From: Euglena gracilis
Lineage: Eukaryota
Assembly: GCA_039621445.1 (NCBI GenBank)
Contig: CP154954.1
Coordinates: 19,020,642 to 19,084,641 of the forward strand
Direction of reading: 5' to 3'
Length of the DNA stretch: 64,000 nt
The notes beneath the pieces are model-generated. The model was not told the origin of the DNA, did not search any database, and saw nothing but the letters and a program-made list of their open reading frames with translations. Below are positions 28,484-52,599 of the stretch, one piece after another. The first letter of the stretch is position 1. Every line of letters starts with the position of its first letter. Both the position numbers and the translations under genes were made by a program.

Positions 28484-28688
28484 GTTTCACCTTCTCAGGG
28501 CATCAAATATTTATTGAGCAGCAAGCTCACATTGCCATGGCACGGGGTCCCTTGTGGGCTGAGTTCTCAGAGAAGTTGGAAGACTTCAAAAATGCCGAAA
28601 AGAACGCAAGGGTGTTGTTGCTGCAAGGGCAGAGATGTGCCTTCTTTGCTCTGAAGTTGGCTGTGCCGCAAACTTTGACTTTCACAGC
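28484..28688 (+). CDS. Host gene exon (5' boundary uncertain)
   Basis: Reads EQQAHIAMARGPLWAEFSEKLEDFKNAEKNARVLL...TFTA. Joins 30848 in phase 2 via ACC-CAGTATCCAAGA / TTTTGGACCCTG-CCAGT|G. Confidence 0.55.
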
Positions 28689-30847
28689 ACCCAGTATCCA
28701 AGAACGAAGATTGATGGATCTTTTTTGCAATGCTGCACTGGACACTAAAATGAGATACTGTGCGCGTGTGCGTGTGCGTGTGTCTGTGGTGCGCTGTGTG
28801 CAAATCCTTGGTATGACCCACTTGGGCGATCCTGCCCCTTGGGGAAGGGGGTTTTGTTCCTCAGGGGAAGGGGATTTTGTTCTTCATTTCAAAACATTGT
28901 TAGTTCAAGGTTTGATTTTCCCTCGCCTCACAAAGTTTTTTTAACCCCCAAAGACTCCATCCATTGGCCTTTGCATTCGAAGCAGCGCACAATGCAATGA
29001 AATCCCGACATGCGGCATTTGAAGCACGCCTTGAAGCTAAACAGGCAACAGACCATCGATTGCATCTGGACATGAGCTTTGCAGCCAGTGGTCAAAAGCC
29101 CTTCATTTGTGGACTGGAGTGAGAATGTGTTCGCAGTCACATCCATATCAACAACATATTTCCCTCCATTGTTGTGGTCAGGGGTCCGGTGAGAAAGGTT
29201 GGCCGGAAATAAAGGGGGGGGGAGTTTGTTGACTCTCTGTTGAAACGTGGTAAATTTGATGGAGTTTTTGGAACCTCCACACAAACTTACCAAACTCTAA
29301 GCACAATTTGAGCTCGGGCATAACAGATTTTCAATATTTTTTTTACCAAACCTCACAATTCAAAAGCGGGTCAAACACCTGAAAAAACTCAGAAATGAAA
29401 AACCTGGGGGGTAAGGAAAGTGGTATTTACCCCCCAGTTTTCAAGAAATTTCCAAAAAAAATGGCCAAAAAATGAGGCATAAACCCAGACTCATGCCCGA
29501 GCCGGGGTCTTGGACCCGTACTCGGGCGGGAATTTCTCACCCAAGTCCGGGTCCTAGATCCCGGCTCTGGCGTGAGTCTGGGGTTGAGGGAATTCCTTCC
29601 AAATGTGTCCGAGGACAGTTTCAAAAATACCAAAAATGCCACATTTTGTTTACAAAAGTGCCAAAATCCCAAGAGCCAACCCCAAAATTCATTGTGCCCC
29701 AAATGCCAAAGTTTATTTTCCCTTACTTCGGCAAGGCGTTGATGTAGGCTGCATCCCAAGAGCGAAGAGACAAACCAGCTTCCTGTGTTCATGTGTCAAC
29801 GAGAATGTTGTTTGTCAATGAAATGTTTTCCTGCAATCTATTGTGCAAATACCAAAAGAAATGCCATTAGCAAACGTCGCCGGTCCCCATGCCGACGGGA
29901 AAAAAGCCACATCCCCTTTCGGTAAAACCCCTCTCCCCTAACCGACACTAACTTATCTCGCTAACTAACACTAACACACCTAACCCTACCGAACCCCAAC
30001 AACTTAACACTGACCATTCAAATCTTGAAACGGAACTTATTCCTAATTCCAGTGACTTTTCTGGTTGACATATCGCAGATGCCATTTTTGTTCTCCTACA
30101 AAAAACTCTCCACTCTCCATTGCACATGAGCCACACCCAACCACCAACACAACACACCAACGAAGGCAACAAGAGGCACACACCCCTCCCCCCAAAGTGC
30201 CAAAAAAAAGCTAAATGTTGGTTACTAAAGTGCCATCAATGCCGAACTTTGGTTGCCATTGCTAAAAATGCAAAATGTTGGTTGTGAAAGTGCTGGAAAT
30301 GCAAATACCAAAGAGATTTTTGGTTACCAAAGTGTCCAAACCGGCACTTTGTTCACGACAAAATGCCAAGATTATTTCCCCAAAGTGCCAAAAATGACAA
30401 ACTTGGTCATTTTCCATTTCCAGCTTGCTCACAAATTTTGAGTCCGTTCCAATTTCGCGACCTGAAGGGTCTTAACTCTTTGCCCTAAACAGGGACTCAG
30501 ACCAGAACAGTGCCTAGGCCAAGGTTTTAGGGGGCACGGCGCTTTCGGCTTCTCAGGGGAGCGCTCCCCTAACTCTTGACCTAAACACAGTTCTTGGCAT
30601 AAAGACCTCTGCCAATTTTACCAAACTCACAACCTTGAGATCCCACAGCCCCCTCCCCTCCCCTGGGGGGGGTTGGCGACAAAAAAATGTGATGAATTTT
30701 TCTCCACTGACCACAATCCCCCTGAAAAACAAAGGGACAAAAAACTCGCCAGGACATCCTAAACAACCCCTCTCCCCAAGTTTTGGACACACTGCATTTT
30801 GGGTGCATGCAAACTTGCCACGACCCCAAGTTTTGGACCCTGCCAGT

Positions 30848-30954
30848 GGCGGAAACACTGGTGGAAGCTGTTGTTACGGAGGCTTTTCAGGCAGTCTGGT
30901 CTGAAGCTTTGCAGCGCGATCTCTGGCAGTTGAAGGAGGTGGAGGACCAGGAGA
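30848..30954 (+). CDS. Host gene exon
   Basis: Reads AETLVEAVVTEAFQAVWSEALQRDLWQLKEVEDQE. Intron 30955-32538 is GTT-CAGGGTT / AACCCTG-AGGGT|G, in frame. Confidence 0.75.
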
Positions 30955-32538
30955 GTTCAGGGTTGCTTGGGACGCCTTCTTCCTTCATCCCCCCAGGGAG
31001 GCATTTGTTGGGGAGGGGGCAGTTGGCCCTCCCCCCCACTCACAAGAAAGAGTGGACCCCCCGATTCCCAGGCTCCATCACGTTTGATGTCAGAATTGGG
31101 TTTGGGTCAGGGTTGGGATTAGCGATCAGGGTTCTGGGGTTTAGGCCCAATTTAGGCCTAATTTGGTCCAAATGGTGCCCCAAAATGAAAATGGATTCCA
31201 AACCCTACCTCCTGGAATTAACCCGAATCTTACCCGAAACAGGTGAACTTGCCCCACACAAGTGGCCCCACCCTGGCAGCACACCACCTACTCTCCCCCC
31301 CAGGTTACCCAGAGGCAGGGGCTGCTGAAAAAAGCTTGCCCCTGGTGCCCCCACCAGATTGGCCGCCCCTTGGGCGGCCTCGGACCCCCAAATGGCCAAT
31401 CTGGGGGGGGGGACAATCTTGCACGTTCACCATTTTTGACCAAAATGGCCGATTTGGGAAGTACACCAGATTGTCCCCCCCCTCGAGATTGGCCTTTTGG
31501 GTTTTGTAAGATACCCAGGCCAAATTGGCCGTTTGGTATTCGGAAATTTACCGTGCCAAATTGGCCGTTTTTTGTCATTTTTATACCCGTGAATTGGCCA
31601 AAAATTGGGGGGGAAAACTTGGAAAAAGTTTTACCCCCCCCCCATTGTCCATTTATTTTCTTTCAAGCATTGGCGACCAATGAATTGCCATTCCTTCTTT
31701 TCCAGGGCCAGTGGACAGTTGATGGCAAAGAATGAGCTGACAATTTTGCCACGTGACTTTTTTGGACAAAGGTTGGGCATGGCAGTTCTTTTCTGACCTG
31801 AAATGCTGAAATAGTAAGGGGGGACGCCAGTAACATCGAGTTCCTGTTCAGCTTCTCTTTTTTTCAGCAAGCTCACACCCTGCAGCATCCCCTGGTTTTA
31901 TGGGCACACAGGGTGGGGGTGGTATTTCAAACCCCCAGGGTGGGATTTTGGATTTTTTTTGTGTTTTTGGGTGTTTGGCAAAATTTGTCTTCTTTTGTGT
32001 TCATTTGTGTGTTTTTGTGTTTCCCCCCCCCCCGGCAATTTCTCCGTTTCTGCAAGGATTTTTTTTTTACTCAGAAAATTCTGCATTTTTATTCCGCCCC
32101 GATTTTCCCTCAGGCGAAAACGGGTTCTCATTTTTTGTTTTTATCGTATTTTTTGAAGTATGTGAGCAAAATCGAATTAACATTCATCTTAAAAATAGAA
32201 TTCTTGTTTCAAAAAAAGCAAAAAGAATTTGTTTTTTGGATGTTTTACATTTTTTTTGCTGTTTTGATCATGCCTTTTCTTTTTTGGAGGAAGAAGAAGA
32301 GTGTCCAAAACATGCCACTATGCATAACAATGTTTTTGAAAACATTTCAACAACTCTGTCAAAAAAGCTCCAAAAACCTTGTTCGTTGGAGTTTTATTCA
32401 AAGTATCAATCCGTTTCAAAAACAGGGGCATTTGATGTATTTGGCTATAATCGCCAGATGTTTCATATGCAAGTAGCCCAAGTATTTCCCCTCTCTTCCT
32501 CCCCCCCCAGAATTTCCCTCCCATGAAACCCTGAGGGT

Positions 32539-32583
32539 GGCAAGCATTGGTGGATGAGGAGGAGTCGATGCGCAGGCTCAATG
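32539..32583 (+). CDS. Host gene exon (3' boundary unresolved)
   Basis: Reads RQALVDEEESMRRL, continuing the previous exon. The link to the 35.1-kb exon was not solved. Confidence 0.65.
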
Positions 32584-35105
32584 GTTTGCCATTGCCATTG
32601 CTTTATTTTGTTTCCAAAGTCTTCAAGACCAGGCCAAAAAGACACTTTGACAACGAGCACCATCTCATTTCTCTGTGTTTTCTCCGATTGTTTTTCATAG
32701 GAGGGGTGATTGTGCACCACTTCCTGCTTGATCAGCTTGAGTTTTGTGAGTCTGAATGACATCGCTCTTGCAGAGTTTTTATTACCGAATTTAATTCAAC
32801 TTCATTGAATTATTTTTCTTTTGGCCACGAGCAACACCACACACACACGCACAGCCACCCACACCCAACACACAACCATACATGTTCAAGCCGGCACTTT
32901 GAGGAGACCAGAAAAGATCTGCCAGGGTGGACACCACCCATACCCCCCCCCCCCCATAAAGCGACCCCCAACCCGGACATTGGTCCAAAAAAGGCCAAAT
33001 TTTGACGGAGCCTTCAAAATAACCCAATTTCAGATTCTTTTCCGATCTGTTCACAAAGAGCTCTCTGAGATCTTTCTAAAAATGCATAAGAAGTTGGCCC
33101 AAAACTACTAGGTATCTTCCTACCACCATACCCCCCTGATTGACCAGGTTTGCAGAAGTGCTGAGCTCTTTGCATAGAATGGCAATCTGGGGTGATGATG
33201 CCTGCAGGCTCTTGCTTGAGCGTTCGCGGTACCCCACCCCCGGGGGGCACTGAGCTGCAGCTAGTCCGAATTTGGTCAGTGGAATTCCTAGTGGACCCTC
33301 CGGGGGGTATGTTAATGGAATTACACCAGAGTTAATTACACCAATTTACTCACCTGGCCAGGCGGAGCAACAACAAACAAAGCACTGGTGTGAGGGGCAC
33401 TCACTGGGCACCAGGCCACTCACCACACAGCAAACTGGGCCAGAAGTGAAGCTAGCACCGGCCATAAACAGACAAGAAGCCTTAGTGCAACTAAGGGTCT
33501 CTAAAATTTTGACTCCCAAAACTTGCCGAAAATGCCCATTTTTGGCCATTTTTGGTATTTTTTTTTTGGAGCAGAATCATCCAAAAAATAAATAGTAAAA
33601 ATCTCATTTTCCCACTGCCGGAGGAATTGTTTTTCCCAGTTGGGGGATCCCTGGACCCCTCCCCCTGGGGGGGGGGTCCGGAGTGTAGAGGGGGGGGGTT
33701 CAGCACAAGTGGTTGGTTTTCGCGTTAAGTGAGATATTTTGGGGCATTTTGGTGGCAGTTTCTGGATCAAAAATTGATCTTTCCCAAGAATCTGGAAAAT
33801 GAAGCAGAACCAAAGGAAATGTCCGGCAAATGAGGCCATTGGAACGCCCATCTAACCGTATTTTTACTTTCCCGTAACTCCGTACCAAGCCGGAGTGATG
33901 GCCATATTTATGCATTTGTTTATTTTATTTTTTTGTTTCTTTTATGGTCACGCGGCCCACCTTTTTTTGCCTGTTTTGAATTAGCCGTTCATCAGCCATT
34001 TTAGGACAAAAAAATCGCCCCCCCCCAAATGTCTCGAAAATGATGGAATCACTGGAGACCTAAAATATAGCCCTGGAGACCCTTTATCACCCCGCCGTGT
34101 AGGCCTCCAGGGCCAGCTGCACACTTTGTTTTTCTTTGTTAGTTGTTGTTTATTTGAGATTAATTTTTTTTGTATTCTTTATATTTTTAACACACAATTT
34201 TATTATTGAACCTTTTTCATTTATTTTTTTTGCTTTTTTCCCCTGATGTTTTTATTTTGCATTTTTTTGCTTCAATTTGTCTGCCATTCTTTGTATCAGT
34301 TTTGATTTTCCTCCTTTTTTTTCAAATTTCAGGGTTTGAATTGTGGTTGTGCTTTTGACACGTATCTGTTGCCCCCCACTGAGACACTGCACAACCCAAC
34401 GACCTCATTGTCTAACACCCAGGCGTTTGTCAAGGGCCCCGGGGAGTCACTGGCTAGCCACTAGAAGTGACTAGACACTGGCAAAAAGCCACTGACACCA
34501 AGCATTGAATTCTCACAAAGGAAAAATTTGGGGCATTGTTTCAAGCTGTTTCTCACCTCCCCAAACCTTTGCAGTAACATCCCAGGTTGACAAGGCAGAA
34601 GTTGAAAGCAGGGGGGTTTTTTTTAAAGCCGTGGACCCCCCGGGGGGGGTAGGGTGGGTGGGTTCGGCCGGATATACTATTTTTTTGGCATTTTTTTTGT
34701 GATTTTTGGTCATTTTTTGTGGAAAAGTGGTTGCCCCCCGGGACCCCCCCCCCCCCAAGAGGATGGGTGGGTCGGGGGGACCCCCCCTTCCCCCGGTCTT
34801 AAAAAAAACCCTGGAAGGTCTCAAACACGAATTCTGGGGGTTATGAATCCTGTATGTTGTGGTGACACATCTTAGGCACCCCAACTGACATCCCTGCTCG
34901 TCCTGGGGCACTGGATCACACCCTGATTGCATTATTTGGGTTTCGGGAGCCTGGTATTGCAATTTTCCCAAAAAATTGACGATGTCCGCATTTGCGCACA
35001 CGGACAAATCCTTAATCCTTAAGTGCGAGTGACACCGTCTAAGATTTAGGAATAGCCCGAGCTGATCACAAAGTGAGTGATAGTCTGTCCAGTGCCACTG
35101 CAATG

Positions 35106-35227
35106 GTCTTGCAGAGGCAGTGGGGGGTACCGCTGCTCGCCGAGCGCTGCATCTCCACCGAGCGGAACTGAGCCGCAAATATGCACAGCGCGCCATGCAA
35201 GCAGAAAGGGAGGAGCGGTTGTCCAAA
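35106..35227 (+). CDS. Host gene exon (5' boundary approximate)
   Basis: Reads AARRALHLHRAELSRKYAQRAMQAEREERLSK. Intron 35228-36019 is GTT-CAGAGCCAAG / CCTGGCTCTG-CATCA|G. Confidence 0.7.
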
Positions 35228-36019
35228 GTTCAGAGCCAAGCCTCTCTGATTCCTGAAGGAAAGGGAGAATGAAGACGGTCCAGTCTTACAGCCCTGAAGA
35301 AATTTGGTCTTCTGTTTGCAATTTTGAAATGCTGAACTGCGTTTCATGGGGTCAGATGGTTTAGGTGCGCCTGAGTGGGGGGGGGGCGAGTGGTTGGGTT
35401 TTCCAGTCCCTCTGCCCCGGGGGGGGGCACCACAGGCGAGAAGTGCAGCGAGAAGTGATGACAAAATGATGACAGGCCATAAGCTGACAAGAAGCCTTAG
35501 TGCAACTAAAGGGGTGGGGAATTACAAAAACCCCAGAAGCATCAAAAATATATTTACTCCCTCCTCATTTGGGCATCGGACCACATTTGCTTGCCCATGC
35601 GGGCCAGCTATATTTTTTCAAATTGAAATTTGAAATGCTTTTATGTCAGTATTTGAATGAGAAACAAGCAGGGTTGGGTTCAAGGATTTTCCCCACATGG
35701 GAAGGTGCTCCGACACATTTTGTCATTATTTGGGAATTTGGGACATAACTTTTGTACGCATTCCATTAGGAATGTATGGATTTGCTCTTTGAGGTCAAAA
35801 TCAAATGGGTGGTTTGCATCTGAAAGGGATGAAATGCAATTATTTCCTTTGGAGCTGAGAACAAAGCCAAAAAAATAGTCTATATTTTTATTCTGATTGT
35901 GCTCTCACAATTGCTTGCTTGTATGTTTATCTGGTGAATCTTTTTTTTTTCATGAAGTGATGGTGTACATGATGTATGCTCCTGATCTTTTGCAAAAAAT
36001 GCAACCTGGCTCTGCATCA

Positions 36020-36040
36020 GACTTTGCTATTCAAATGTGG
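36020..36040 (+). CDS. 21-nt micro-exon (DFAIQMW)
   Basis: Paired nonconventional junctions on both sides, both phase 0. Intron 36041-37589 is AAC-CAGGCTTTTCCA / TGGCGAAGCCTG-CTGGT|G. Confidence 0.7.
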
Positions 36041-37589
36041 AACCAGGCTTTTCCATTGGGAGCCAAGCAATGATGTATTTGCTCAAGTCTCGTAGTGCAA
36101 CTTTGTATTCTTCTGCTTGGTGAAGGCCATTCTTTTTGCATTTCATGGCTTTTACGAAATTTTACCTCAGTTTCTGCAAATTTTTATCATTTTCCCCATT
36201 TCAGCACATTTTTCTGTGCAGTTTTTGGACCCCCCATATCTGCCCTTGGGCGTCCACTGCATCTTGACAGCAGGTTCAGACGTTAGGTCAAGGAATTCCA
36301 CAGATGGACGGATTGTGACCTAACCCCCCCAAATAACCCCCCAAAAAGCACCCCCCCCCCTCAGGGGCCAATTTCAATTGCGCCCAAATAACACCCCCTG
36401 TTTTCCTTTGGTTTTCAATGTAAAAATACCCCCCCCCCCCAATAACACCCCCCCCTGGCACCCCAGTTCGGGTGCCCAAATAACACACTGGGGGTGTTAT
36501 TTGGGTGGGGGGGGGGTTACGTTGTTCAGGCCACCAACAGATGTTGCTCCTGTTGTTCAGGAGTGTGGCCTTGAAAAAGGCTACAGCATGAGCAATCCCG
36601 GGGTTCTAAATATCTGGTGTTCGATGATTTTCGGCAACTTGCAGGTTCGAAAACTTCCGGAACGCAGTGTGTGTGTGCATACGCGTACATTAACACATAC
36701 ATTCTAAACATACATCCACACATCATCATCATCATCATCATCATCACAACCGCATCCACACACCATCAGCAATCGCATTACCCCCCTTCTTTGAAATTTA
36801 TGCTCCCCCCAATTTGATTCAGTAAATTTGACTCAAAATGCATGGAAACACTTTGGAATGACCTTGAAACTGTCAAAAAACGTCACATATTCAAAAAATT
36901 TTCACCCCCGCCCAAAATACCATACCCCCCCCCTCAGTTAGTCACCCCTTGGGAGGGGAATTTGGCCAAGGGTGACTAATAGGGGAGGGTGACTAATTCG
37001 GGGGGGGGGGGCAATTTATGCCCAAATTTTGCCCCCTGCCCCAAGTCTTGGGGTTTCAAGGTTGTTTTTGGGCATTCCAGGGCACTTTTCATGGATGGCA
37101 ACCAGCAAAAAATTCTGACGACCAAATTCGGCTTTTTTTTAAGAAAAATATTTTCCTTCGGAAAAAATTGTTTTTGCCTGGGGGCCCAAAGATGACTTAT
37201 AGGGGGGGGGGCGACTAACTGAGGGGGGGGGAGGGCATGATAACCAAATCCCCTTGTGTGTGCCAGGCAAGGATGGCCACAGGTAAACGTCTAATGAACT
37301 CAGTGGGCCTACGGGGGGGGTGCTGCCCCCGGACCCCCCCGCCCAAAATAACAAAATCTTTTTGTGCGTGCAAGGCATGGATGGCCACGGGTAACCGTTC
37401 TAATGAACTTAGTCGGCCTACGGCCTCCTCCGAGGGGGGGGCAGCTCCCCCCCGCCGTACCCCCCGCCCAAAATAATCCGCAGCAGCTGTGTCAACACGT
37501 ACCCGCACACCAAGGTGCGCGCAGACAGGTGCGTCCAGTGCCAATTTGACATGAATCTGTCCGCGTCGTTTGTGGCGAAGCCTGCTGGT

Positions 37590-37693
37590 GACTTGAATGC
37601 TGAAGAGGCCGCAGCCCGGCGCCAGATAATGGCGGAGGAGCGGCTGGCCATGGCTAAGGCGCGCCACTCCGAGCTGCAGGCGTTCAAGGCACA
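37590..37693 (+). CDS. Host gene exon
   Basis: Reads DLNAEEAAARRQIMAEERLAMAKARHSELQAFKA. Intron 37694-37898 uses AAC-CAC / GTG-GAGGT|G. Confidence 0.75.
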
Positions 37694-37898
37694 AACCACC
37701 CGGCCATCAGCGATTCGGCAACCAGAACCGACGTTTAACAGCGTGGCGTTCACACGTGTACCTTTGCCAGATTGCAGGTGAAGTATTCTCCCTTCCCAAA
37801 AGGTCAACTGCATTATAGACTAAACCCTGCTGTCTTGAGTTGCCAGGCACACAAAGGGCCACGCCCCATCAGTGACATGGTGGGGGCGCGGTGGAGGT

Positions 37899-37979
37899 GT
37901 TCACTGCCCAGCGGCAGCAGCAGTCCCGCTTGCTGGCAAACCGGCTCAAGGCGGAGGAGGCTGCAAAGCGCCAGTTGCA
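37899..37979 (+). CDS. Host gene exon
   Basis: Reads FTAQRQQQSRLLANRLKAEEAAKRQL. Intron 37980-40336 is AAC-CAGGCTGAAT / AATTGGCCTG-TTGCT|G. Confidence 0.75.
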
Positions 37980-40336
37980 AACCAGGCTGAATACAAGGAT
38001 GCCCCCCCCTAGTCTGACTCCCCGGGGTGTGTGGGGAAGGACACAAGGCCCAGCTGACTCAGTGCCAATGGCACCGGAAGCCCGGAAAAGACCCATTTCC
38101 TGCAAATTCTGTTCATTTTCCCCCATAATGGGCCATTTTTCAATTCTGTGCATTTTCTTGTGTTTCTTCGGCTTTTTTGGTTCATATATGACGTTTGTAT
38201 TTCTTCCCTCTGATTTGGGCACCTTCATGCCATTCACTTCAGGCGGCAAAATCACTTATTTCCACTGATTTTTCTGCTTTTTTGGAGTTTATTCTCACTT
38301 ATTTTGCCGCTTATTTTGGGGAGATTTTTGCGCTTATCCCCCCCCCCCCTCAGGTGGAATTCCTCTTGCCAGGGTGGTCCGTAAGGGACGGGATATATAT
38401 GTATATATATTTTTATTTAAGGACCGCCCCCTTAAAGACCGCCCCCCCCAATACACAAAAACCCGAAAAATTGGACCCGAAAATTTTTTTCCGGCGCCTT
38501 CAACGCCGGCTTTTTTTGACCCATTTTGGGACCCATATGGGAGGTAAAACTAAAAACCCCTCAAAATCCCATTTTTTTCACACCTTTCAAAAGTTCAACA
38601 TTTTCTCAAAAATTTAATTTTGAGAGTTTTTTGAAGCAAAAAAAGCCATTGAAAATTTCCAAGAGAAAAAATGGTACACTTTTTTTTCGACCTTCGTTAT
38701 TTTCCACCCCCCTCCAAAAAATTACCAAATTTAACCCTGAAATCTTTGAGATTTTTTGTGAAAAAAATGTGGGATTCCATCAAAAAATCATTCACTTTTC
38801 AAAAAATATTTCAAAATTTTTTTCGGCCCAAATCCCCTTTTTCCCGAATTTGGTTTTTTCTTGAAATTTTGAAATTTTGTTGAAATTGAAGTTTGCCAAA
38901 AATCTTTTGGCCACTTTGGGGGGGGTTGCCCTTTGAGGGGGGGTGAGGGTATTTCAATGTCCAAAATTCAAAAAGTTGAACTCACAAAAAGCATCGATTG
39001 GACGATCCTCTCTTGTAAAATTTCCTCGAAGGCACGTTTGGAAGGTTTATGTCAATTTACAACACACCTGGGTTGTAAACGAGAAAAAAAAGTGTGTGGG
39101 TTGATGATTTAAAGCTTGAGATAAACAACCAATTGCCCAATTTTTGAAAATGACCCATCAACCTCAAAATGATCATTTTGAGAGGAAAAAGAGCACGGGG
39201 GGGGGGAGAAAGTTGCGCCGTGCAATTTTTGCAATTTTGTGCAATTTTCGATTTTCCTGAAATGTGCAATTTTTTTTTGCAATTTTGTGCAATTAATTGC
39301 ACATGGCCGCTGGATGATGAACAAATTCAGGATGAATGGCGTAAGCATTGCCATCGCATATTGCCACGGCTGATTGTGTTGCAACTTTTTGGGCGAACCG
39401 ACCAGGTAAATTGGCAGAATATGCAGCTTTTCTGGTTTCTGGTATCTCTTTTCTGGTATGTGCAATTTTGTGCAATTTTGTGAATTTTGTGCAATTTCAC
39501 CTCTAACCATCAAAACGGTGAAGTTCCCGGTGGTCCAAAAAATTGGTGCCACCAAAACAACGGGAAGAGGGTGGTGGTGGGGGGGGGTCGACCCCCCCAC
39601 CCACCTGCACACGGGCCGGTGAAAAACTGCACTGGGAATATCTTGCAAATAAGAAAACCCTTCTTGCTCTTTGAAGCCTTTGGCTTGTGTGACATTTGGC
39701 CACAATGCTTGGGGCAAGGCCCAATCTTCTTCAGGCACTTGTGCTCCTTTGCGGCACCACGAATTTCGAAATCCTCAACTCCAACTTCAACCAAAATTTG
39801 CAACAAAAAAACAACAGTTTTTGTATTTTGTCCCTAGGAATCCCAACATAAATAGTTGAATCTGCTCATCCTCAGGAGGGGCGACCCTTGGCCGGTGAAC
39901 CGGTGAAGTTCCAAAAATTTTCCCCAGCGTCTTCGGCAATGGGTGTATTTTAGACCCATTTTGGGACCCATATAGGAGGTCCCACAAACCCCCCCCCCAA
40001 AAATGCTATTGAAAATCCATCAGATTTCCAAAGAGAAAAAATCTAAGTAAATTTGAATGTTCCAAAATTTGGTCCCATTTTTTTGATCTGATTTTTTGAC
40101 CCCCCTCCTAAGAACTAACAATTTTCAACCCTTAATTTTTGGATATTTTTTGGGGGAAAATGTGGTTTTCCATCAAAAAATCATGTATTTTGGGATCATT
40201 TTTCAAAATAATTTTCAAGAATTTTCCCCGGCCAAAATCCCCGTTTTCCCAAAATTGTGTGTTGGGACAGAATTTTTTTTTTAGTTAGGGACCCTCCTGC
40301 AAGAGGCTGGGATTTCGCCGAAATTGGCCTGTTGCT

Positions 40337-40385
40337 GATGCAAAGGTTTGCGTCGGAACGGTCCGCAATGCTGAAGCAGATGCTC
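40337..40385 (+). CDS. Host gene exon
   Basis: Reads MQRFASERSAMLKQML. Intron 40386-41509 is GGT-CATGGGTTT / GGACCCATG-GGGAC|G. Confidence 0.75.
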
Positions 40386-41509
40386 GGTCATGGGTTTCTT
40401 CAGGCTGTTGTGTACCCCTTTCAAGAGGCAGCAACCAGGTCTCTACTATTCAGCCTCTAAATTTCTTTGCTTGCGGAGGGTTTTACTCTTCCTCCTCAAA
40501 GTTTCAAAAAGGAGCATTTCATGTTCCTTTGTCTGAAGATTTTTCAAAAAAACAGAACTAGGGCGTCACTTAAGCCGAAGGGCACCCCATCCCCTGGGGG
40601 GGTCGAGCCAACCATTTTTTGACAAAGGGTTAAAAAACCCCGATTTTTTGGATGGTTAATTGGCTGTTTTTTTTTTTTTGCGTAATTGGCTGCTTTTGTT
40701 GACATTTTTGCAGTTTCGATTTTTTTGGCACCCGGTTCGACCCCCGGTCAGACCCAGTTCCAGTAAGGGGGACCCCTTTGGCGGAGGCAGCCTTTTCCCG
40801 CCAGCCCAAATTTCCAACCTCGAAGCTGGACCTCCCCTGGGGGGTTGCCATGCGACGCCATGTTTGAAACAAAACCCCTTTGACCCTGTGTTCCTGCAGC
40901 GACCCTCTATTTTGGGACCTCGTCATTTTCCACTGTTGAGACTCAGGGAACAGACCCAACCTTGGTGTTTTTTGGCCTGTGCGCCTTTTCGGGCAACAGA
41001 AATGGCCCGAGTTGTGGCCATTTTACAGTGGCTTGCCTCCAAGTGCTGCACACTTGGGATGGTTTGACTTTGCGTTTTTTGGGACCATTTTGGGGGTCAA
41101 GGAATCAGATTTTTCAATTTCTGTGTGCATTTGTGTTTTGGTGGTGACTTTTTTTGCTCACTGCTGGCAATAGCTTGATCCGAAAATTGTTTTTCAGATT
41201 TATTTTATTTTGTGATTAATGTTTTGTTTTGTTTTGACATTTTTGTGTTCTTTTTGGGACCAGGAAGTTCAAAAAGTGCAAATGCTGTTGTTCGGATATT
41301 CGATCACCCAGGTACCGAAAATGGATTTAATTGAACTTGTGCTTTTTTCTCTTGCACTATTTCCATGTATTTCTGATTTTTTTTGCATTTTTTTCATGTC
41401 GCATTTTGGAGAGTCCCTTATCGCGTCCCTGATGAGAACGCTAAACAGGATGAGGAATGAAATAATCATGATGATGACAGTGACCATCGATGGAGGGACC
41501 CATGGGGAC

Positions 41510-41535
41510 GTTGCCGAGGCTAAGTTGTTGGATGC
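41510..41535 (+). CDS. 26-nt micro-exon (VAEAKLLDA)
   Basis: Intron 41536-42242 is AGA-CAGAGCTG / CGGCTCTG-GCCCC|G, phase 2. Confidence 0.7.
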
Positions 41536-42242
41536 AGACAGAGCTGTGACGTTTTTCTGGATGTTTGGGTTGTTTCTCACTTCTGTCAAGCCAGTGGTAG
41601 CAGCAGTGCGTGACTGACTGAACCTTTTCGACTTTTTGATTTACCCCCCCCCCATTTAGTACGACCAATGAAATTTTTTGAAAATGACCCCCCCATTTCT
41701 TACGACCACCTTTGGATTTTCCACCAACTCAAAAAGGTAAACAATTTTTTCCTTACAGCGTGCTTGTTGTTTTTTGAACCCTCGGGTTTTTTTTTTTGCT
41801 GCCTAGGGAGAGGGGGGATAAGCAGGGCTATGGGAATCTTGGAAACACGGCTGAATTACGCACCCATATCTGGTGACAGCCCAGCTCCCCTGGGGGGCGC
41901 TGCCAGCCCTGAAAACCAGCCCCCTTTTGGGGGGTCCAGGCAAAAATTTTGTTGAGGTCAAAAAATGGCCAAAAATAATGTTTTGGGCGTGCCCTTTTTT
42001 TGGAGGGGGGTGTGGGTGTTACGGGGGTCGGGTGGGGGGGAAGGCATTCCAGGGTTGAAAGGCCTTCTCTAGAGAGGTTTCAACGTGTTCCGGGGGGGGG
42101 GAGCGCACAGACAAAAGGGCCAGAGGCGAACAACAGCACCAGGCCAGAAGAAGGGATAAAAGGCACCAAAAAACAGCCACAGTGCACACAGGGGGGGGGA
42201 GCGCTGGGGCACCCACCGTGCAGTCCGGCCGGCTCTGGCCCC

Positions 42243-42392
42243 GTGCGCCGCCCACCGGGTCGCCGCGGCGCACCGCGCGGCCGCGCTGGAGCGGGCCACT
42301 GCCCAGCTCGTCCACGCCGCGCTGCGGCAGGCGGTGGCGGAGGCGGCGGCGGAGGCGCGGGCCCGGGACATGAGCCCGCCGAAGCGCGGCAC
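42243..42392 (+). CDS. Host gene exon
   Basis: GC3-rich; reads CAAHRVAAAHRAAALERATAQLVHAALRQAVAEAAAEARARDMSPPKRG. Intron 42393-43228 is AGC-CAGCCGCCTTTGG / CCATGGGCCGCTG-TGGCC|G. Confidence 0.8.
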
Positions 42393-43228
42393 AGCCAGCC
42401 GCCTTTGGCTGCCCACCAACGCCTGTCAGTGGATCTTCTGTTGGTGAGTGGGGGAAGGGTTCGGCAGTGTTGGTAATGAACCAAATGCCACAGCAATTTT
42501 TCTTTGCTTGCTGGTCTTTGGTGGCTTGAATTATTTGTATCTGAAACCACACCAACCTCACCTGCCAGGACCATGGACTCTCTGGCATAAATCTAAATTT
42601 TCTAAATAATCCAAATTTTCTTTTGGTGTTTTGCACCAGTTTATCATATTGTTCCCCAGAAAAAAAGTTAGGAAAGTGCCAGCAAGCACACTTTCTGGTT
42701 GATCCGGGGCGGGAAAATTCTGGCCTTGGGCGAAAACCAGTCTTCATCCCCATTTGAAAACGCTTTCTGGACCAGCAGTAGTCTGGATCGGGAACAAATT
42801 CTGTTGCGCTGTCAATGTGATGAGCGTCAAAGAGAAGGATTGGCTGCCCCTTCTTGGGCAACAGAAAATCACTGTACTGTGGTGGAGTTGTGTGGGCGTT
42901 GCTGCTGCTCCCGGTTGACCCTCTCCATCGTCGACTGCAGGTCCTTGTCCTTCCCCGTCACATGCAAACTTGGCCCCCCTACAGTTGGCCTTCAGCCTTA
43001 ACTTTCAGCCTTGACCCTATTATTCGGCTTACCTTGACCACTTTGTGCATGGCCCGCTGAAAGTTGGTTGGCCACCTGGCCTGGCCTTACCTTGACTCGT
43101 GGCCCAGCCAAGCGCCCCCGGGAGGGGGAGGTCAGCTGCTTCTCGATGGGGGCGGCCATAAGATCGCCTTAATCAGTTATGTTCTCCGGGCAGTTTGAGC
43201 GCCCATCCGTCCATGGGCCGCTGTGGCC

Positions 43229-43394
43229 GTCCTTGCGCCTGCGGCCGGAGGTGGTTCGGGAGGTGGCGGAGCAGCACGCCGTCACGGTGTCGCCGGTGAA
43301 GGCGGCCCCGCCCGCCCCGCCCCCCCAGGCGGTGCGGCCGGGGGAGGCCCGGCCGGAAAAGACGGGCCGCCGGGTTTTCATCCGCCGGCAGGGC
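43229..43394 (+). CDS. Host gene exon
   Basis: GC3-rich; reads SLRLRPEVVREVAEQHAV...RRVFIRRQG. Intron 43395-45037 is GCA-CAGGAGC / GCTCCTG-CGGCC|G. Confidence 0.8.
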
Positions 43395-45037
43395 GCACAG
43401 GAGCCGCTGGTTTTTTTTTGGAGTGAAGGCGTATTCCAAAATCACGTAGAATCACGTAACCCCCCCCCCCCCCAACTAACCCCCCCCCCCCTCGGGGGTA
43501 GCAAACCCCCCTGTTTTCCTTTAGTTTTCCATGTATCAATAACACACCCTTATGGCTAGGATTCTAGGCCTGACGTTTGGCATAGACGCGGGGCTGAAGT
43601 GGGGCTTAAAGTGGCCTTCGCTTAAAGACCCCCGGGGCAGGGCAGAACGGGAAGCGGCCAAACAGCCAGGGTGGTGGGTGGGGGGGTCGACCCCCACCTC
43701 TTCCCGTATTTCCGGAAGGACCAATTTTTGGACCCGAAAATTTTTTTCCTTCAACGCCGGGTGTTTTTTTGAGCCATTTCGGGACCCATATAGGAGGTCC
43801 CCCCAAAAAACCCCCAAACCCCATTTTTTTCACACCTTCCAAATTTGAGCATTTTCTCAAAATTTTGCTTTTGAGAGTTTTTGAAGCAAACAGTGCCATT
43901 GAAAATGCAAAAAAATTCAAAGAAAGAAAATGTCAGTAAAATTTGACTGTGCCAAAATTTGGTCCATTTTTTGACCTTTGTTTTTTCACCCTCCTCCTAA
44001 AAACTACCAATTTATAAACCTGAAAATTTTGAGATTTTAAATAAAAAAAAAAATGTGTTTTTCCATCAAAAAATCATTCATTTGAGTTCAATTTTTTAAA
44101 AAAAATTCAAAAAACTTCCCCGGCCAACATCCGTTTTCCCAAAATTGGTGACAATGCTGTGGTGGGTGGGGGGGGGTCGACCCCACCCCCCTCCTCCCAG
44201 GTGGGGGGGCGACCCCCCCCCCAACCAGTCCTTCCCATTCTGCCCCTGGGGGGTTCCACTGGACTGAACTTTCCACTGGCTGGGGAAAAAGCCACCAGCT
44301 ATCCCCCCCGGGAGGGGGGGTCCCAGCGTCCACCCACCAGGCCTTCCCTTTTTCAGGTCAAATTATCCTTCGGCGCCGAAGGAATTTTCTTTGCGCCGGT
44401 GCCAATGGTGGGAGGGGGAGGTCGACCCCCTGGACCTCCCGGGTGGGGACCCCCCCCCCCCACCAGACCTTCCCATACAGCCCTGCCAATCGCCCCCAAA
44501 ATTGACCCCCGGGGGATATGGTTGCTGTGGGGGGCACCCATACGCAAAGCACCCCTTGGGACAAAGAAGCTGGCTCCCACCTCATGTTCTCCAGAGCCCC
44601 AACAGAACAGCTTTGGGGAGCGTTGCATTTCCATCTGGACGGAGCAACCCTGCCCCCCCCCAGTTCGACATGTGTGGCCACCCGATGGGAAAAGCGTCCC
44701 CAGCAGGGGTTTTTTTTTTAGTGTTGGACCCGGGGGGGGGGGAGGGGGGGGGGGTGTGGCCGGACACACCCACCGGCGGGTACCTCTTTTTGGCTGGTGG
44801 GTGCCCGGCACCGAAGGCGCCGGATTTTTTTTTTTTGACCAGCGCCAAAGGCGCCGATTGCATGCATTTTCTTTGTCGCGCCTCTCGACCCCCCCCCCCC
44901 TAAAAGTGGGTCGGGACACCCCCGGGGGGGGGTCCCGACCACTTTTAGGTCCGACCGTCAGGGGGTGGGTGGGGGGGGGACCCCTCCCCCGGTCTGTTTT
45001 AAAAAAATGCCTGTCCCCAACACCAGCTCCTGCGGCC

Positions 45038-45166
45038 GAGCGGCTCCGGAAGCAGCGGGAGGAGGCGGCCGGGGGCCTGTGGTCCGCCAAAGACCTGTCC
45101 CTGCTGCGGAAACAGCAGGCCGTGGGCCGAACGATGGTAAACCCGAATGCGCTGACGTTGCCGCCT
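45038..45166 (+). CDS. Host gene exon
   Basis: Reads ERLRKQREEAAGGLWSAKDLSLLRKQQAVGRTMVNPNALTLPP. Intron 45167-46798 is TCC-CAGAGATGGGCT / GGCCCACCTCTG-CCTGC|A. Confidence 0.7.
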
Positions 45167-45695
45167 TCCCAGAGATGGGCTCGCAACCCCCGAGGGAATG
45201 GGGCGTGGGCGTGCTCTAAGCCCCCTTCCTATTCATGTCTGGTTCCATGGGTGAACCCTAATTTAACCATCACCTTAAGCTCGCCCTAAACCTTCCCCAA
45301 ACCCTATTTTGGCAGCGAGCACCCTGTGTTGGACGAATGGTGGACACCACAGTTCTGGTGTTGTCTCTTTGGTGATGGGGATGTAGGGGGATCAAAAGTT
45401 TTAAGGGGAGGTTCATATTTGGTTGGAGGGGGGATTGAGTTTCATGAAACCCACATTATGTTGCTGAGCTTGCACCTTAGTTTTTGTTCTGTAAGTGCTG
45501 GTTTCAGGAAAAGACGCTCATTTTGCAATAAATGCACATTCAAGGGGTCAAAATTTTGGGATATGCTGGTGCAGATCTGAGGGGAGGTCTTATTTAGGTT
45601 TTTTCTGTATGCTGCATTGTGTGTTGCCGGTGGTGGGAAAGTTTAGTCGCAAATGGCAGAACTTTTTTTGTTGGCCATTTATGAAAGAACTGCTT

Positions 45696-46128
45696 TAACC
45701 CCCCCCCCAAATACCTACCCCCCCCCCCCCCGGGAAACTGTTACCTGACAGGTTGGCCAGTACCCGGGACCCTGACAACTTCCTATCATGACAGGTTGGC
45801 CGGTACCAGGGACCCTGACAGTTTCCCGGGCGGGACCCTGACAGTTTCCCGGGTAGGACATTTCAAGGGAAAGTCAATAAAAAAATGACCCTGACAGGTT
45901 GGCCGGTACCGGGGACCCTGACAACTTCCTATACTGACAGGTTGGCCGGTACCGGGGACCCTATACTGACAGGTTGGCCGGTACCGGGGACCCTGACAGT
46001 TTCCCGGGCGGGACCCTGACAGGTTCTCAGGCATGACAGTTTCCCCGGGGGGGGGGTAGGTAATACCCCCCCGGGGTATTATTTTTTCGCCCAAAGTCCC
46101 GGCCCGAGGGTGTTATTTGGGGGGGTAA
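45696..46128. mobile_element. Nested small TIR elements with an internal CTGACAGGTTGGCCGGTACCGGGGACC tandem array
   Basis: Outer ends TAACCCCC..AAATA / TATTTGGGGGGGTAA; inner ends TACCTACCCC..GGAAACTGT / ACAGTTTCCCC..GGTAGGTA. Confidence 0.6.
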
Positions 46129-46798
46129 CAGCACCCCAGAATTTTCGAAATTTTTCGAAGTCCCGTGGGACCCAAAATAGCACCCAAACCCTGGGGTCGT
46201 TTTTTTGTCCTTTCTGTTCTTTTTGGAGGCCAGATGATCAATTTTTTCGTAATTTGTTGTCAGAGATTGTTATTTTCCCCCACATTTTCAGGTCAAAATC
46301 CGGGTCGTCAGCCCGAGATTGGGGGGGGGGGGGTATTAACTCGGTGGCCGAAGTCGGACCCCGAGGGGGGGGTATGATTTTGGGGGAGGGTTTACTGAAG
46401 GATGTTCTTTGGGGTTCGGATCATTTTTTTTTGGTTGAGAATTTTATGTGCAGAAACATTTTTTTTCACTTGAGAGAGAGAGAGAGAGAGATATATATAT
46501 ATATGTATATATATTCTCTTTTTTTTGTACATCCAATTAACTCTCCGCCTTCTTCAGTCTTCAGTCTCCTCACCCGCATTTTCTAAGAGGTGAGAGGTTG
46601 ATAACCCAGGGTATGTCGCCAAACGTGTTGCCACCGACCCCGACCCCGACATTGCTGCCTTTATTGGCTGCTTTGTCATTATGGCAGATCTAATGCCTTT
46701 TACCGGATGACTTTTCCTGCTGGGGGGGAGCAATCAGATGCATTGGCTTTGTTCATTAGTTCAAATGCCTGGAAGGTGCCTGGCCCACCTCTGCCTGC

Positions 46799-46809
46799 AT
46801 TGTTTCACC
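46799..46809 (+). CDS. Putative 4-11-nt micro-exon
   Basis: Followed by TCACCATTCAA, which pairs with TTGAGTGGTGA (46939-46949). Several registers keep the frame. Confidence 0.4.
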
Positions 46810-46946
46810 ATTCAATGTCCAAGCCCCACTTCTAACCTGACTTTCCACCTGGCCTTTGCTTTCCATGTCCTGGGTGAGGCTTCTGAGCCGTTGACCGCCT
46901 CCGATTAACGCACTTCCCGGTGCGTCGTTTTTTTTTTTTTGAGTGG

Positions 46947-46998
46947 TGACGATGAAGCTGTGAAGTGGAATGAAACACTGAGGAAGAAACTTGGCGGA
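46947..46998 (+). CDS. Host gene exon (5' boundary uncertain by ~7 nt)
   Basis: Reads (DD)EAVKWNETLRKKLGG. Unspliced read-through hits TAA after 5 codons; the spliced product stays open. Confidence 0.6.
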
Positions 46999-47001
46999 GA
47001 C

Positions 47002-47201
47002 CAGGCTTTTGCTTAAGGGATTGCAGGGCCCCCCCCCCCCGCGGGGGGGGGGGGGCTGGACTGCGGCTAGTCCAAATTTGGCTAGTGGGTTTTCTAGCAG
47101 ACCCCCCCCGGGGGGGTCTAGCTAGTCCACTTTTTCCAGTGTCCAGCCGATTGGCTAGTCAGTGTCCCCTACCCCCCCCCGGGATCTTAAACAAAAGCCT
47201 G
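47002..47201. mobile_element. hAT-like MITE with perfect 8-bp TSD GCGGAGAC, coinciding with predicted nonconventional intron 46999-47206
   Basis: TIR CAGGCTTTTGCTTAAG / CTTAAACAAAAGCCTG; TSD at 46994-47001 and 47202-47209. A relative starts at ~33205. Confidence 0.9.
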
Positions 47202-47206
47202 GCGGA

Positions 47207-47338
47207 GACGCCACTTTCCTCAGAGTTCTGGCCGGGGCGTTTCTTTCGCCAGAGGGGAGCCCACTGACCCAGGGCCGCCCTCAGACGTCCTCCTTTTTTC
47301 CATTGAGGACCGTCCCTTGCGGACAGTCCTTGGGCTGA
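47207..47338 (+). CDS. Probable last (or near-last) exon of the host gene
   Basis: Reads DATFLRVLAGAFLSPEGSPLTQGRPQTSS..., open for 43 codons to TGA at 47336-47338. Confidence 0.55.
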   Translation, partial: DATFLRVLAGAFLSPEGSPLTQGRPQTSSFFPLRTVPCGQSLG

Positions 47339-47945
47339 GGGGCTGGCCAACGGCCAGCCTGAGGCTCGAACGGGGCAAAAATCAAAAGTCGAAGAACGCA
47401 TTTTTGACGTTTTGGGTGGATGGGCGATGGTCCAAGGCTGCAGAAATCACTTTTCTGTGTTGTTGGAAAGGCCTGCAAGCCCTGGGGGGCAAGTTATGGT
47501 CTGATGCCAACAGAGGAAGCTTTAATCTTCAATGGGCCATGTTGTACCTCGATACCCGGATACCCCTTTTCTAATTTCTCACCCAAATGAGGTCGAGTTT
47601 CCATCATTTCCTTTCCATCACTTTCTGTTCAAAGGAGCCTCAGCGACTTCTTTATGCATTCTGTCACATGTTCCGCTCCCCCTTTCCCATCTGTCCATCA
47701 CACACCCAGGTGATGGAAGTGCTCATGGCCTGCCATTTCTGCAATCTGTCGCCACATGGGTGATATGGGTGACTTGGGCAGCGTGGCTTGGGTGTCACCC
47801 GCGCCAGCCAAGAGTCCGGCACGCTTCGTCCCAAGCATTTTCATACGTTCACAAAGTAGAAAGTTTTCTTTTTGTTAACGTTGCTCACTCTCAACTCGGT
47901 GGAATTGGATGGCATGCCCCGGAGAGGCACTCCAAGAATCCAGAC

Positions 47946-48298
47946 CAGGCAATTGCTTAAGCACTGACCAACCCCCCCCCCCCCCCGGGGGGGGGGGGGG
48001 GACTGGTTTTTTCAGAGTGACTGACTGGTTTTTGGCCCGGACCCCTCCCCCCCCGGGGGGGTTGGCCAGGAGTGGGCAAAAGTGGCTTGAGTGACCCCGG
48101 CGCCGAAGGCGCCGGAAAAATTCTTTGGGCCTAAAATGGCCTAAAGTGACTGGAAAGTGGCCGTTTTTCTGAGTGGCCGACCCCCCCCCGGGGGTAGTGA
48201 CTGGCTGGTTTTTTGAAAATGAGTGACTGACTGGTTTTTAAAAAAAGTGGAGTGACCCCCCCTCCCCCCCCCCCGGGGGGTCGGTAAGCAATTGTATG
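47946..48298. mobile_element. hAT-like MITE (CAGGCAATTGCTTA...TAAGCAATTGTATG), perfect 8-bp TSD ATCCAGAC
   Basis: TSD at 47938-47945 and 48299-48306; GTGACTGG subterminal motifs. Confidence 0.88.
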
Positions 48299-51118
48299 AT
48301 CCAGACCATCCCCAATGCTTAAGGTGTGTCCGACTCCACCCAGGCGGGGGGTGACTGTCTGGTTTTTTCTTCTTCGGAGTACTGGTGGGGTTCTTGCTCT
48401 GAACCTCTGGGGGGGGTTGGCATGTTAGCCGAAGGTGGCCGCCCGGCGCCAAAAGCGGCAAATTTTTTTTGGGTGTTTTGGGCAAAATCTATTGATTTTG
48501 AGCCATTTTGCCGAGTGGCCAGACTGACCACACCCTACGGGGGGGGGGGGAGGAAGTGAATGACTGGTTTTCGAAAAGTGACTGAATGATTTTTGAAAGT
48601 GGAAAGTGCTCCCCCCGGGGGGGGGTCAGAAATGGTGTGGGATTATGTGCAATTATTTGCACATGCCGTTCTATTCTGCATAAAAATATAAAACACAGGC
48701 ATCCCCCTGGGGGGAATGTCCTCCCAGGAAACTGTCGCCCGTGCACTCGCTGACCTGTCCTCATTGGGACCTTCCCACCAGGAAAGTGCCGTTGACACAG
48801 GGGGGTCAACAGCAGGGTGTCATAATAATAATAAAAACAGACCGCTCCAGCAACAATTGGCCTCCACAATTTCACCATTGGCTCTCATATGGCACCAAAC
48901 ACCAACACCAAGTTCATAGTGAATTTGAAGCCATGGCTGGCAAGGAGATCCAACACAATCTTGAAGCGTCTTGGCTGAATTTCCTCAGAAACTGTGTGTG
49001 TCCAACGCAAAGAAAAAACTTCTCTTCCAGAAAAGTCCCGTTGGCACGGGAGGTATGGCAATGACACGCTGTGTCAATGACAAGGGGGGGGGGGAGGTAG
49101 CTCGCCCCCCATGAGGGGGGGGGGAACCTGAGCTGGGCCGGGTTGGGCCAAAACCGGACAATTGCCCAACAAAATGACGTACAAAAAGCACCTTGGAATA
49201 AATGAGCATCTGACAACCACCCAAAAATAAACACCCAAAGATCCCCCCAAAACACCATTTTTTTACCATCTCTGGACACTTTTGGGCTTGACCCAGCACA
49301 AAGAGGCTGGCTAGCTGGGTTAGCCCCCCCCCCCCCCCCCCGAGTGGTGCTGCTGCGGTTGGGCTGGACCGGATTTGGACTGGCTGCAGCGCCCCCCCCC
49401 CCCCCGGATGCGGGGTCTGCAGGGCCTTGAAGGGAGGTATGGTCAGGGTCATTTGCTTGGATAGGGTTTGGGTTATGGTTTGGAATTGGAGCCGGAGTGC
49501 CCAGGCCAAGCGTGTTCCCAGTTGGGTCTGGATCATCGAAAACGTCCATCGAATTGTACAACAAATAATGTTGTACAATGAGAATTTTTGTCAGAGGTGA
49601 CAATTTTCTAGGCCCTTTCCAGCAGGTGAGTTCCTAAAGGACTTTACATGCAGTTTTGCATTTTTTTTTGCATTTTTTTTGCATTCACATTGCATATTTG
49701 GAGGTTTCTCTTTGTACATCTCCCTGTGCATATTTGTATTTTATTGCACCTCACTTTTTTTTGTCAACCTTTTTGTCAACACAGCGAAACAACACATCAA
49801 CCATCATTTTTTTTGAATTTATTCCACAAATCACAAAAAACAACACATCAACCATCATCGCACAGATATTTCTGAGACGGGGATTCAGGAACAATGATCA
49901 AAAATCTACAGGGATTCACAAAAAAAACCTGTGCAAACATTAAAAAAAGGTACCAATTGGAGCCGATTACTGGTTTCACCTGAATGTTTTGAAAAAACCT
50001 GTCCCATCAAGGGTGAAATGTTCTGAAAGTGGCAGATAAACCAAGGCTCATGTTGTCAATAGCAAGGATGCTCAGTGCATCTTGTGTGCATTCCTGGGCA
50101 CCTGGTTTGTTGGGAGAACTCCATGAGAGGATCAAATGTTGGATTTGTTCTCGAAAGCACAACATTTGAGCCTTCCCCTCCTCTAACTTTTGTGCTATTG
50201 CTCACCGATGTTGATTTCACTCTTGTGTGTTGCAGTGCTCAGCGTCCGTTTGTTTGCGAAGCCTCTTTTGCCCCGTCCCAGAAAACCAAGATGGTGGATG
50301 GGGGACCCGGAGCCCGACTGTTCCTGTTCATGGGCGATGTCCCCCCCGGACAACTGGCATTTTCCATTTTCTGGCGTGGCGCACCGCTTTTAGAGAGTTT
50401 CTGGCCAGGAAATCGCCCGTGCTCTCACGCATCTCCCAAGATTCGTACTCCCTCGAGAAAACCGACAAGGGAGAAAGGGACACAGTGCACCCCGGGGACC
50501 TTTAGGGAACCAGGAGGAAATGACCAGGAGGGCGAAGCACAAGGGCAGGGCGAGATCCTGCTTGTTTGTGCCGGCTGTTTGTTCATGGTGTGGTCTTTGG
50601 TGTGGTGCTTCTTACTGCGTGTTTGTTGCCGGAGGTGGCGGTCTCGTACTCCCTCGAGGAAAACCGACAAGGGAGGAAGGGACACCGAGGGCGAAGCACA
50701 AAGACCTTGTGAGTCTGGTGCGGCTTTTTGGACTCGAATCGTCTTTTCCCCTCGGGCGGGCGGGCGGACTCACACTGCCCTTATGCTTCGCCCTCCTGGC
50801 CATTTCCTCCAGGCTCCCTAAAGGTCCCCGGAGCGCACGACCACTCGGGCGGCGCACTTTTTGGGTGAGATTTTGTGCACTAGATTGTCGATTTTTTCTG
50901 CCGCCTTTTTTGGGGCGTTGATGCGCAAATAATGGGATGTAAAACTTTTTAGATCTTTCCACTTACCAATTTGGCACACTTCCTCTGAGTCCAAGCCAAA
51001 AGACTAAAAGAAAGAGACCCCTGCACCTCTTTTGCTGTGTGCCCCATACAGGGCAGGGACCCCCTGCTGCAACAAAATTTTTTTTGTGAGGCCATTGATG
51101 GAATTTGGCTTCAAAGCG

Positions 51119-52123: not shown

Positions 52124-52599
52124 AGCTCCTGGAGGTAGCTTTCTGACTGCACCTGAGGACTCCTAATCCCTCAAAATCCTGTTTGCCAAACCAATTTCTT
52201 CTCTCCCATAGAATCTTGTGTTTTTTTTGACAGGTTTAGGGGTAATGGGAAATCTGGTAGAATGCCTTCTTGCAGAATTTGACAGAGAAAAGTGTTTCCA
52301 TGTTTTCTCCACCTGGACAGAGTTTTCAAAAGTCTTTGGGGCAAGGGTGTCCCCCCACTGTTTTTCCCTGCATTGAATCATGTGCTGTAGGGGGCATTCT
52401 TGATAAGAAAGCTGCTGAGTTTTGGGACCCACCCTGGGTCGTTGTTCTTGCCTGGAGACTGGCTGGCCAGATGGAAGCTCCTCCACGTCCACGACCTTTG
52501 AATCCATAGATTCTGCCTTTGTCCAGGCTCTTCCCCCGCCATGGTGATGGGTATGAGCTGCCATAGCTCCTGTTGAGGGGCCGACTGCCCTTGCCACCT

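Follow-up and report, generated by a model that had tools for sequence, protein, structure and literature searches.

A 200-bp element in the 64,000-nucleotide stretch of Euglena gracilis DNA that we analysed as a whole (the window) is in our view most probably a young, non-autonomous MITE of a very high-copy, hAT-like family, inserted 3' of the stop codon of the P0001 gene, where it would have rebuilt the signal of a nonconventional intron and where its splicing is predicted. Seen by itself, this is no more than an ordinary young MITE in the 3' region of a gene. That this kind of MITE and its 8-bp scar together form a ready-made nonconventional intron is well founded, agrees with independent published data and appears to be new in print. 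The element, its target-site duplication (TSD) and the intron that they would make up are as follows.

46994..47001, no strand assigned: TSD copy 1, GCGGAGAC, exact repeat
47002..47201, + strand: 200-bp MITE with TIRs and internal C(n)G(n) palindromes
47202..47209, no strand assigned: TSD copy 2, GCGGAGAC, exact repeat
46999..47206, + strand: predicted nonconventional intron of 208 nt, by code only (GAC/CAG...CTG/GCGGA, then G)

Both the 200-bp element with 16-bp TIRs and the exact 8-bp flanking duplication had been proposed before our analysis, and both were borne out. The TIRs (47002-47017 and 47186-47201, 16 nt each) read CAGGCTTTTGCTTAAG and CTTAAACAAAAGCCTG, start with CAGG and end with CCTG, and agree at 15/16 positions; with C47001 and G47202 included, the inverted repeat becomes 17 nt at 94%. 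The direct repeat, too, is longer than the TSD, namely 10 nt (TGGCGGAGAC, 46992-47001 and 47200-47209), the 2 nt beyond it being there by chance because the flank, like the element, happens to end in TG. Inside the element lie three C(n)G(n) palindromes spaced 69-70 nt. An RNA fold of 46985-47220 pairs both ends of the element in one stem, in the minimum-energy as well as the centroid fold (dG -128.4 kcal/mol, z -5.1; 0 of 200 shuffles equalled it). The exact TSD and the 15/16 match of the TIRs argue that the insertion is probably young, and since a contig of DNA run X3 covers 46532-47023 without difference, the insertion is also present in that run. An Rfam search of 45000-49000 found no match at E <= 0.1, and a tandem-repeat finder run on 46900-48400 returned nothing relevant to the element.

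Knock-ins in E. gracilis (Nomura et al., PMC12501133) define the nonconventional splicing code as 5'-N3CDG-/-CH'GN5-6/R, in which the slash before R is the exon junction; exactly 3 nt are needed in the 5' spacer, the 3' spacer of 5 nt can also have 6, and the bases following CAG must pair with those preceding CTG; earlier descriptions of euglenid nonconventional introns are found in PMC3935182 and PMC4770533. The original prediction had named a CAG/CTG offset for these introns, and its 3 and 5 nt are indeed the spacers of the code as PMC12501133 gives it. At our locus, the + strand has GAC CAG at 46999-47004 (the N3-CDG term), CTG GCGGA followed by G at 47207 (CH'G-N5 and the purine) and a TIR stem that pairs after CAG and before CTG. 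To judge by its letters, then, the element with its TSD on the + strand agrees with the published code in every sequence term; on the - strand, it is C that follows the 5-nt spacer in place of the purine. The predicted intron amounts to exactly the element plus 8 nt (46999-47206, 208 nt), just as had been claimed. Its 3/5 register is not fixable at this site because the 10-nt repeat lets 11 registers (cuts 46991/47200 through 47001/47210) yield one identical product.

The scenario we envisage starts with a MITE with CAGG...CCTG inverted ends and an 8-bp TSD, presumably made by its transposase, which would have landed 161 nt past the stop codon of P0001. Such an insertion would recreate the full signal (N3-CAG, paired arms, CTG-N5, purine) because it brings CAG at the start of the element, CTG at its end, arms that pair with each other and an 8-bp TSD whose position 6 is a purine. 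Given + strand transcription, the host machinery would then be expected to excise the element together with 8 nt, giving back the RNA as it was before the insertion.

The neighbouring gene provides both the position of the insertion and a set of introns for comparison.

28537..46840, + strand: coding part of the P0001 gene, 14 exons and 13 introns
35228..36019, + strand: RNA-verified intron, GTT CAG ... CTG CATCA, X22 consensus
36041..37589, + strand: RNA-verified nonconventional intron, AAC CAGGCTTTTCC ... GAAGCCTG CTGGT

P0001 (463 aa; source name eukprot:EG_transcript_9235) was found via the exon starting at 37590, for which it is the sole protein match (100% identity, E 2.9e-23), and maps to 28537-46837 at 100% identity; a Pfam search with it gave no match. 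Its last coding exon (46799-46837) is directly followed by the stop codon TGA (46838-46840). The element begins 161 nt further downstream and sits in the 3' UTR or the immediate flank of the gene, outside its coding exons. RNA evidence comes from three raw-read RNA runs with the same species label, used along with DNA run X3 over 37001-57000. In RNA run X22, 48 reads with loose ends at 37590 have a consensus that gives an exon end at 35227, a micro-exon at 36020-36040 and an exon start at 37590. The register of intron 36041-37589 is unique, and the first bases of this intron resemble the TIR of our MITE. As for the gene itself, the 21-nt micro-exon encodes P0001 residues 180-186 and lies between two nonconventional introns according to the X22 RNA consensus. 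Relative to the P0001 reading frame, the genome has two extra bases at 37885-37892 (CG in a G/C run), so that exon 8 is split between two alignment diagonals offset by 2 nt; the cause could be allelic or strain variation, a paralogue or an error in the assembly.

According to the original prediction, 11 other introns have CAG at +4..+6 and CTG at -8..-6. Of the 13 mapped P0001 coding introns, 9 have a register for which this holds; another one (40386-41509) has CAT/ATG where CAG/CTG would stand, and the claim fails for three introns (after residues 56, 142 and 240), which match neither the CAG/CTG geometry nor GT-AG. These three, at 28702-28978, 32588-35116 and 37752-37867, have neither GT/GC-AG nor CAG/CTG in any register the protein allows. 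In all 10 geometry-fitting introns a purine starts the next exon, and the arms adjacent to the motifs pair for 3-14 positions, in agreement with the code of Nomura et al.

Strand-specific RNA run X24, counted in bins 667 nt wide with repeats included, has first mates on the - strand only in the unique exon-bearing bins, as expected for a gene on the + strand. Gene-strand (+) RNA stands at 2.37 in bin 46339-47005 (0.06 for the other strand) and at 3.38 in bin 47006-47672 (0.92 for the other strand); exon-bearing bins range from 2.4 to 5.9 and intron-only bins mostly from 0.6 to 1.7, with two repeat-rich ones at 2.7-2.9. This gives a hint that + strand RNA extends past the element. Among the 15 joints listed first, ahead of 720 more, all are carried by DNA contigs and none crosses 46998/47207, which weighs neither for nor against the predicted splicing. 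The best-surviving alternative sees the element in an untranscribed flank, with its fit to the code being of no consequence at this locus. We take this to be possible, if rather unlikely. In its favour, RNA depth is low and most placed reads are repeat-derived (in run X21, 88% of them continue into unlike sequence); moreover, at position 47065 in the element, 23 of 26 RNA reads have the family's A and not the G of this copy, so RNA over the interior comes mostly from other copies. Arguing against it, the value of 3.38 vs 0.92 for X24 in 47006-47672 is at an exon-like level and above most intron bins, and here again we have a hint only. Further downstream, the window holds reverse-transcriptase ORFs at 51122-52162 (- strand) and 59148-60749 (+ strand) with Pfam RVT_1 matches (E 6.6e-07 and 4.1e-16, respectively), hence retroelement copies downstream of the P0001 gene. 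A unique stretch about 3 kb past the P0001 stop (49674-50340) has + strand RNA at 3.57 vs 0 in run X24; this RNA might come from another exon, from an extended 3' UTR or from an adjacent transcript.

As for the family of the element, its TIR motif has five matches in the window if as many as 3 mismatches are allowed, where 0.87 were expected, and 0 of 100 shuffles gave five. Two relatives can be placed.

47938..48306, + strand: second family member with its TSDs, same TIR family, exact 8-bp TSD
33205..33307, + strand: partial, decayed older relative, 70% over 114 nt

The second member proper (47946-48298, 353 bp) has the ends CAGGCAATTGCTTAAG ... TAAGCAATTGTATG, the 3' one decayed to ATG, and an exact TSD, ATCCAGAC, at 47938-47945 and 48299-48306. 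The older relative is nested in intron 4 of the P0001 gene, and its 3' end was not found. The TSDs of the two members, GCGGAGAC and ATCCAGAC, share a final AGAC, which may be a target preference. Summed word depth in X3 is 2,313,374 at position 47065 compared to 146-219 in nearby single-copy contigs, and this ratio of about 10^4, although a depth and not a copy number, goes with a family that is clearly very abundant. A degenerate motif from the interior of the family's elements gave 0 matches in a metagenome scan. C(6+)G(6+) palindromes occur at 12 sites in the window (e.g. 47029-47055, 47972-48001, 48264-48280, 24061-24080); they are internal modules of both MITEs of this family, and RNA reads with poly-C loose ends pile up at several of them.

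Duplications of exactly this length are a wider feature of the window. In a relaxed scan for TIR pairs (CA start, TG end, at least 10/12 match, 40-3000 bp apart), we obtained 1040 pairs, whose 8-nt flanks are identical at 0/1/2/3/4/5/6/7/8 of 8 positions in 119/246/315/208/95/38/9/3/7 cases; by our own arithmetic, chance would give about 0.02 rather than the 7 of 1040 pairs with full identity. Beyond the two members above, the scan singled out the following.

2636-3309, with a copy at 6012-6687: 8/8-TSD pair, flanks shared, one event
14650-15431: 8/8-TSD pair
25214-25636: 8/8-TSD pair
26420-29406: doubtful 8/8-TSD pair, TSD GGGGGTAA, TIR 10/12
8043-9230: 7/8-TSD element of the same family as 14650-15431

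The first of these is a CAGGG...CCTTG element of 674/676 bp; both copies have the same TSD, CTTGTGTT, and identical flanks, and they lie in a segment of about 3.4 kb that is tandemly duplicated at the start of the window, so the shared flanks make them one event inside a segmental duplication. The family of 8043-9230 and 14650-15431 begins CAG[C/G]GGTGTAGAA... (TSD identity 7/8 and 8/8, respectively), and the element at 25214-25636 reads CATAGCTGGC...GCCAGCTATG with a TSD of 8/8. Pair 26420-29406 covers the first exons of the P0001 gene and is treated as doubtful. A strict scan (CAG..CTG, TIR at least 12/14) left 31 pairs after low-complexity filtering, with 8/8 flanks in our element alone. 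Altogether, 8-bp duplications are generated in this one 64-kb window by elements of at least three families, all with CA(G/T)...(C/A)TG ends, and exact 8-bp TSDs are found at both members of our family and at least three other CA..TG elements.

With its TIRs, a TSD of 8 bp across copies, a length of 200 bp and a high word depth, the element has the features of a MITE. Its superfamily is a different matter as no transposase was noticed by eye among window ORFs of at least 130 aa, so that a hAT affinity of the family is inferred here, not proven. Other superfamilies able to make 8-bp TSDs are P, Merlin and some Mutator-like elements, and the terminal consensus of hAT elements is YARNG. CAGGC, the start of our element, fits that consensus at 4/5 positions and departs from it at position 5, and other window elements begin with CAGGG. 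Our element shares the 8-bp TSD with hAT elements and, as the original prediction had assumed of hAT elements in general, both Hermes (preference nTnnnnAn; PMC10368747) and Ac/Ds (11-bp TIRs starting C/TAGGG; PMC3260210) are described as making TSDs of that length. Set against nTnnnnAn, GCGGAGAC has A at position 7 and no T at position 2; over seven window elements (the duplicate counted once, the doubtful pair and the 7/8 element included), T stands at TSD position 2 in four and A at position 7 in five. A MITE from one of the other superfamilies with 8-bp TSDs is thus an alternative for which the imperfect hAT end (CAGGC) and the report of Merlin elements in Euglenozoa (PMC8101967) may speak. 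We nonetheless find it improbable, given that hAT best matches the CAG start, the short TIRs, the strictly 8-bp TSD and its A at position 7, seen in 5/7 elements.

A different origin of the 8-nt repeat, as the scar of double-strand-break repair during intron gain and not a transposase-made TSD, has been proposed for gapC intron 4 of E. agilis strain ACOI 323, which PMC4770533 describes as a strain-specific, newly gained nonconventional intron with eight-nucleotide direct repeats. For our locus this is very unlikely: the TIRs of the element are long, its family has a very high copy number, and at least five independent TIR elements in the 64-kb window have exactly 8-bp repeats abutting their CA..TG ends, the hallmark of a single kind of transposase making staggered cuts. 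The gapC intron resembles our element in the 8-nt direct repeats at its junctions and differs from it in being a proven intron in a coding exon, with repeats that its authors read as break-repair scars (PMC4770533). To our minds, its 8-nt repeats lend independent published support to the original prediction (PMC4770533).

The original prediction had placed the element inside a protein-like frame that its removal restores (KKLGG/DATFLRVL). Neither part of this claim could be upheld. Excising 46999-47206 (208 nt) does leave the joined frame open for 73 codons, but the window has 442 stretches that run for 73 codons or more without a stop, which take up 41% of all frame-codons, and a frame of this length across the joint is unremarkable. 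Nor does its restoration carry any weight, because excising an element plus one copy of its TSD always regenerates the old sequence. The right-hand part of the frame, beyond the element, had no relative among proteins of 23-76 residues; among those of 77-2000 residues there were 13 candidates, none significant; and Pfam gave no match for either of the two flanking frame pieces. Insertion into a protein-coding exon, with splicing of the MITE as an intron and restoration of the reading frame, can therefore be set aside as the least credible alternative: the fit to the splicing code and the 73 codons opened by the 208-nt removal agree with it, but the gene map contradicts it (the P0001 stop lies 161 nt upstream in a frame other than the quoted one), such open stretches are commonplace and the frame is without relatives.

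Among the known systems closest to our preferred reading of a MITE inserted 3' of the P0001 stop are the euglenid nonconventional introns themselves. The element is like them in having CAG at +4..+6, CTG at -8..-6, paired arms and a purine as the first exon base, and it shares the CAG/CTG form with 9-10 of the 13 P0001 introns. Unlike the latter, it is recognisable as a repeat of high copy number, its 16-nt TIRs are near-perfect and its 8-bp TSD is intact; and unlike established nonconventional introns, it lies in non-coding 3' sequence and its splicing is predicted. With hAT MITEs (Hermes, PMC10368747; the Ds1 type of Ac/Ds, PMC3260210) it has in common an 8-bp TSD, short TIRs starting with CAG, small size, the lack of coding sequence and high copy number; it departs from them by C as the fifth terminal base and by an interior of C(n)G(n) palindromes, and it is known here without an autonomous partner. 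The third system is that of introners, in which a DNA transposon plus its TSD gives exact removal from RNA such that genic insertions are tolerated at birth, an idea that would apply to our element as well. Introners, reportedly described by Huff et al. in 2016 (cited in PMC11170887) and reviewed in PMC11282704, are transposon-derived spliceosomal introns of Micromonas, Aureococcus, dinoflagellates and others. They use the GT-AG signals of the spliceosome, whereas our element would present a CAG/CTG stem offset by 3 nt and 5 nt, a signal of non-spliceosomal type.

Going beyond this one locus, the 3- and 5-nt spacers of the code may be the two parts of an 8-bp TSD, with hAT-like CAG...CTG MITEs generating most nonconventional introns, a proposal whose chances we judge to be evenly balanced. 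The link 3 + 5 = 8 is plausible and weakly supported; the sum is correct, and the offsets in it have been published and tested. In line with it, the junction 8-mers of the 10 geometry-fitting P0001 introns are identical at 31/80 positions, compared to about 23.6 expected when 8-mers of different introns are paired (689 of 20000 permutations gave at least this identity; p about 0.03, for 10 introns). What counts against it is that none of the window's elements with an intact TSD is at the same time a P0001 intron and that the terminal 100 nt at either end of the 13 P0001 introns, compared with the window by BLAST under a low-complexity filter, have no other copy there at E <= 1e-4.

A MITE origin of nonconventional introns has been proposed from their inverted ends in PMC3935182 and in the discussion of PMC12501133, so the original prediction was right that it had already been suggested in general terms. 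The review PMC11282704 calls CAG/CTG a TIR and speaks of TSD-like repeats at the junctions. For E. agilis, PMC12501133 gives nonconventional introns as 71.8% of all introns, and 84.4% of introns as slidable owing to short direct repeats. Our search of the literature, which covered running text, found no statement that the spacers sum to an 8-bp duplication, nor any naming of hAT.

These considerations bear on the origin of euglenid nonconventional introns, for which a MITE source has so far been suggested from inverted ends only. The element downstream of P0001 offers a concrete candidate, namely a high-copy MITE family whose ends and 8-bp TSD add up exactly to the tested code. If the link between spacers and TSD is true, it would account for most Euglena introns being 'slidable' and for the 8-nt repeats at the new gapC intron, and any insertion of such a MITE into transcribed DNA with a purine at position 6 of the TSD would be removed exactly from the RNA and thus be neutral upon landing.
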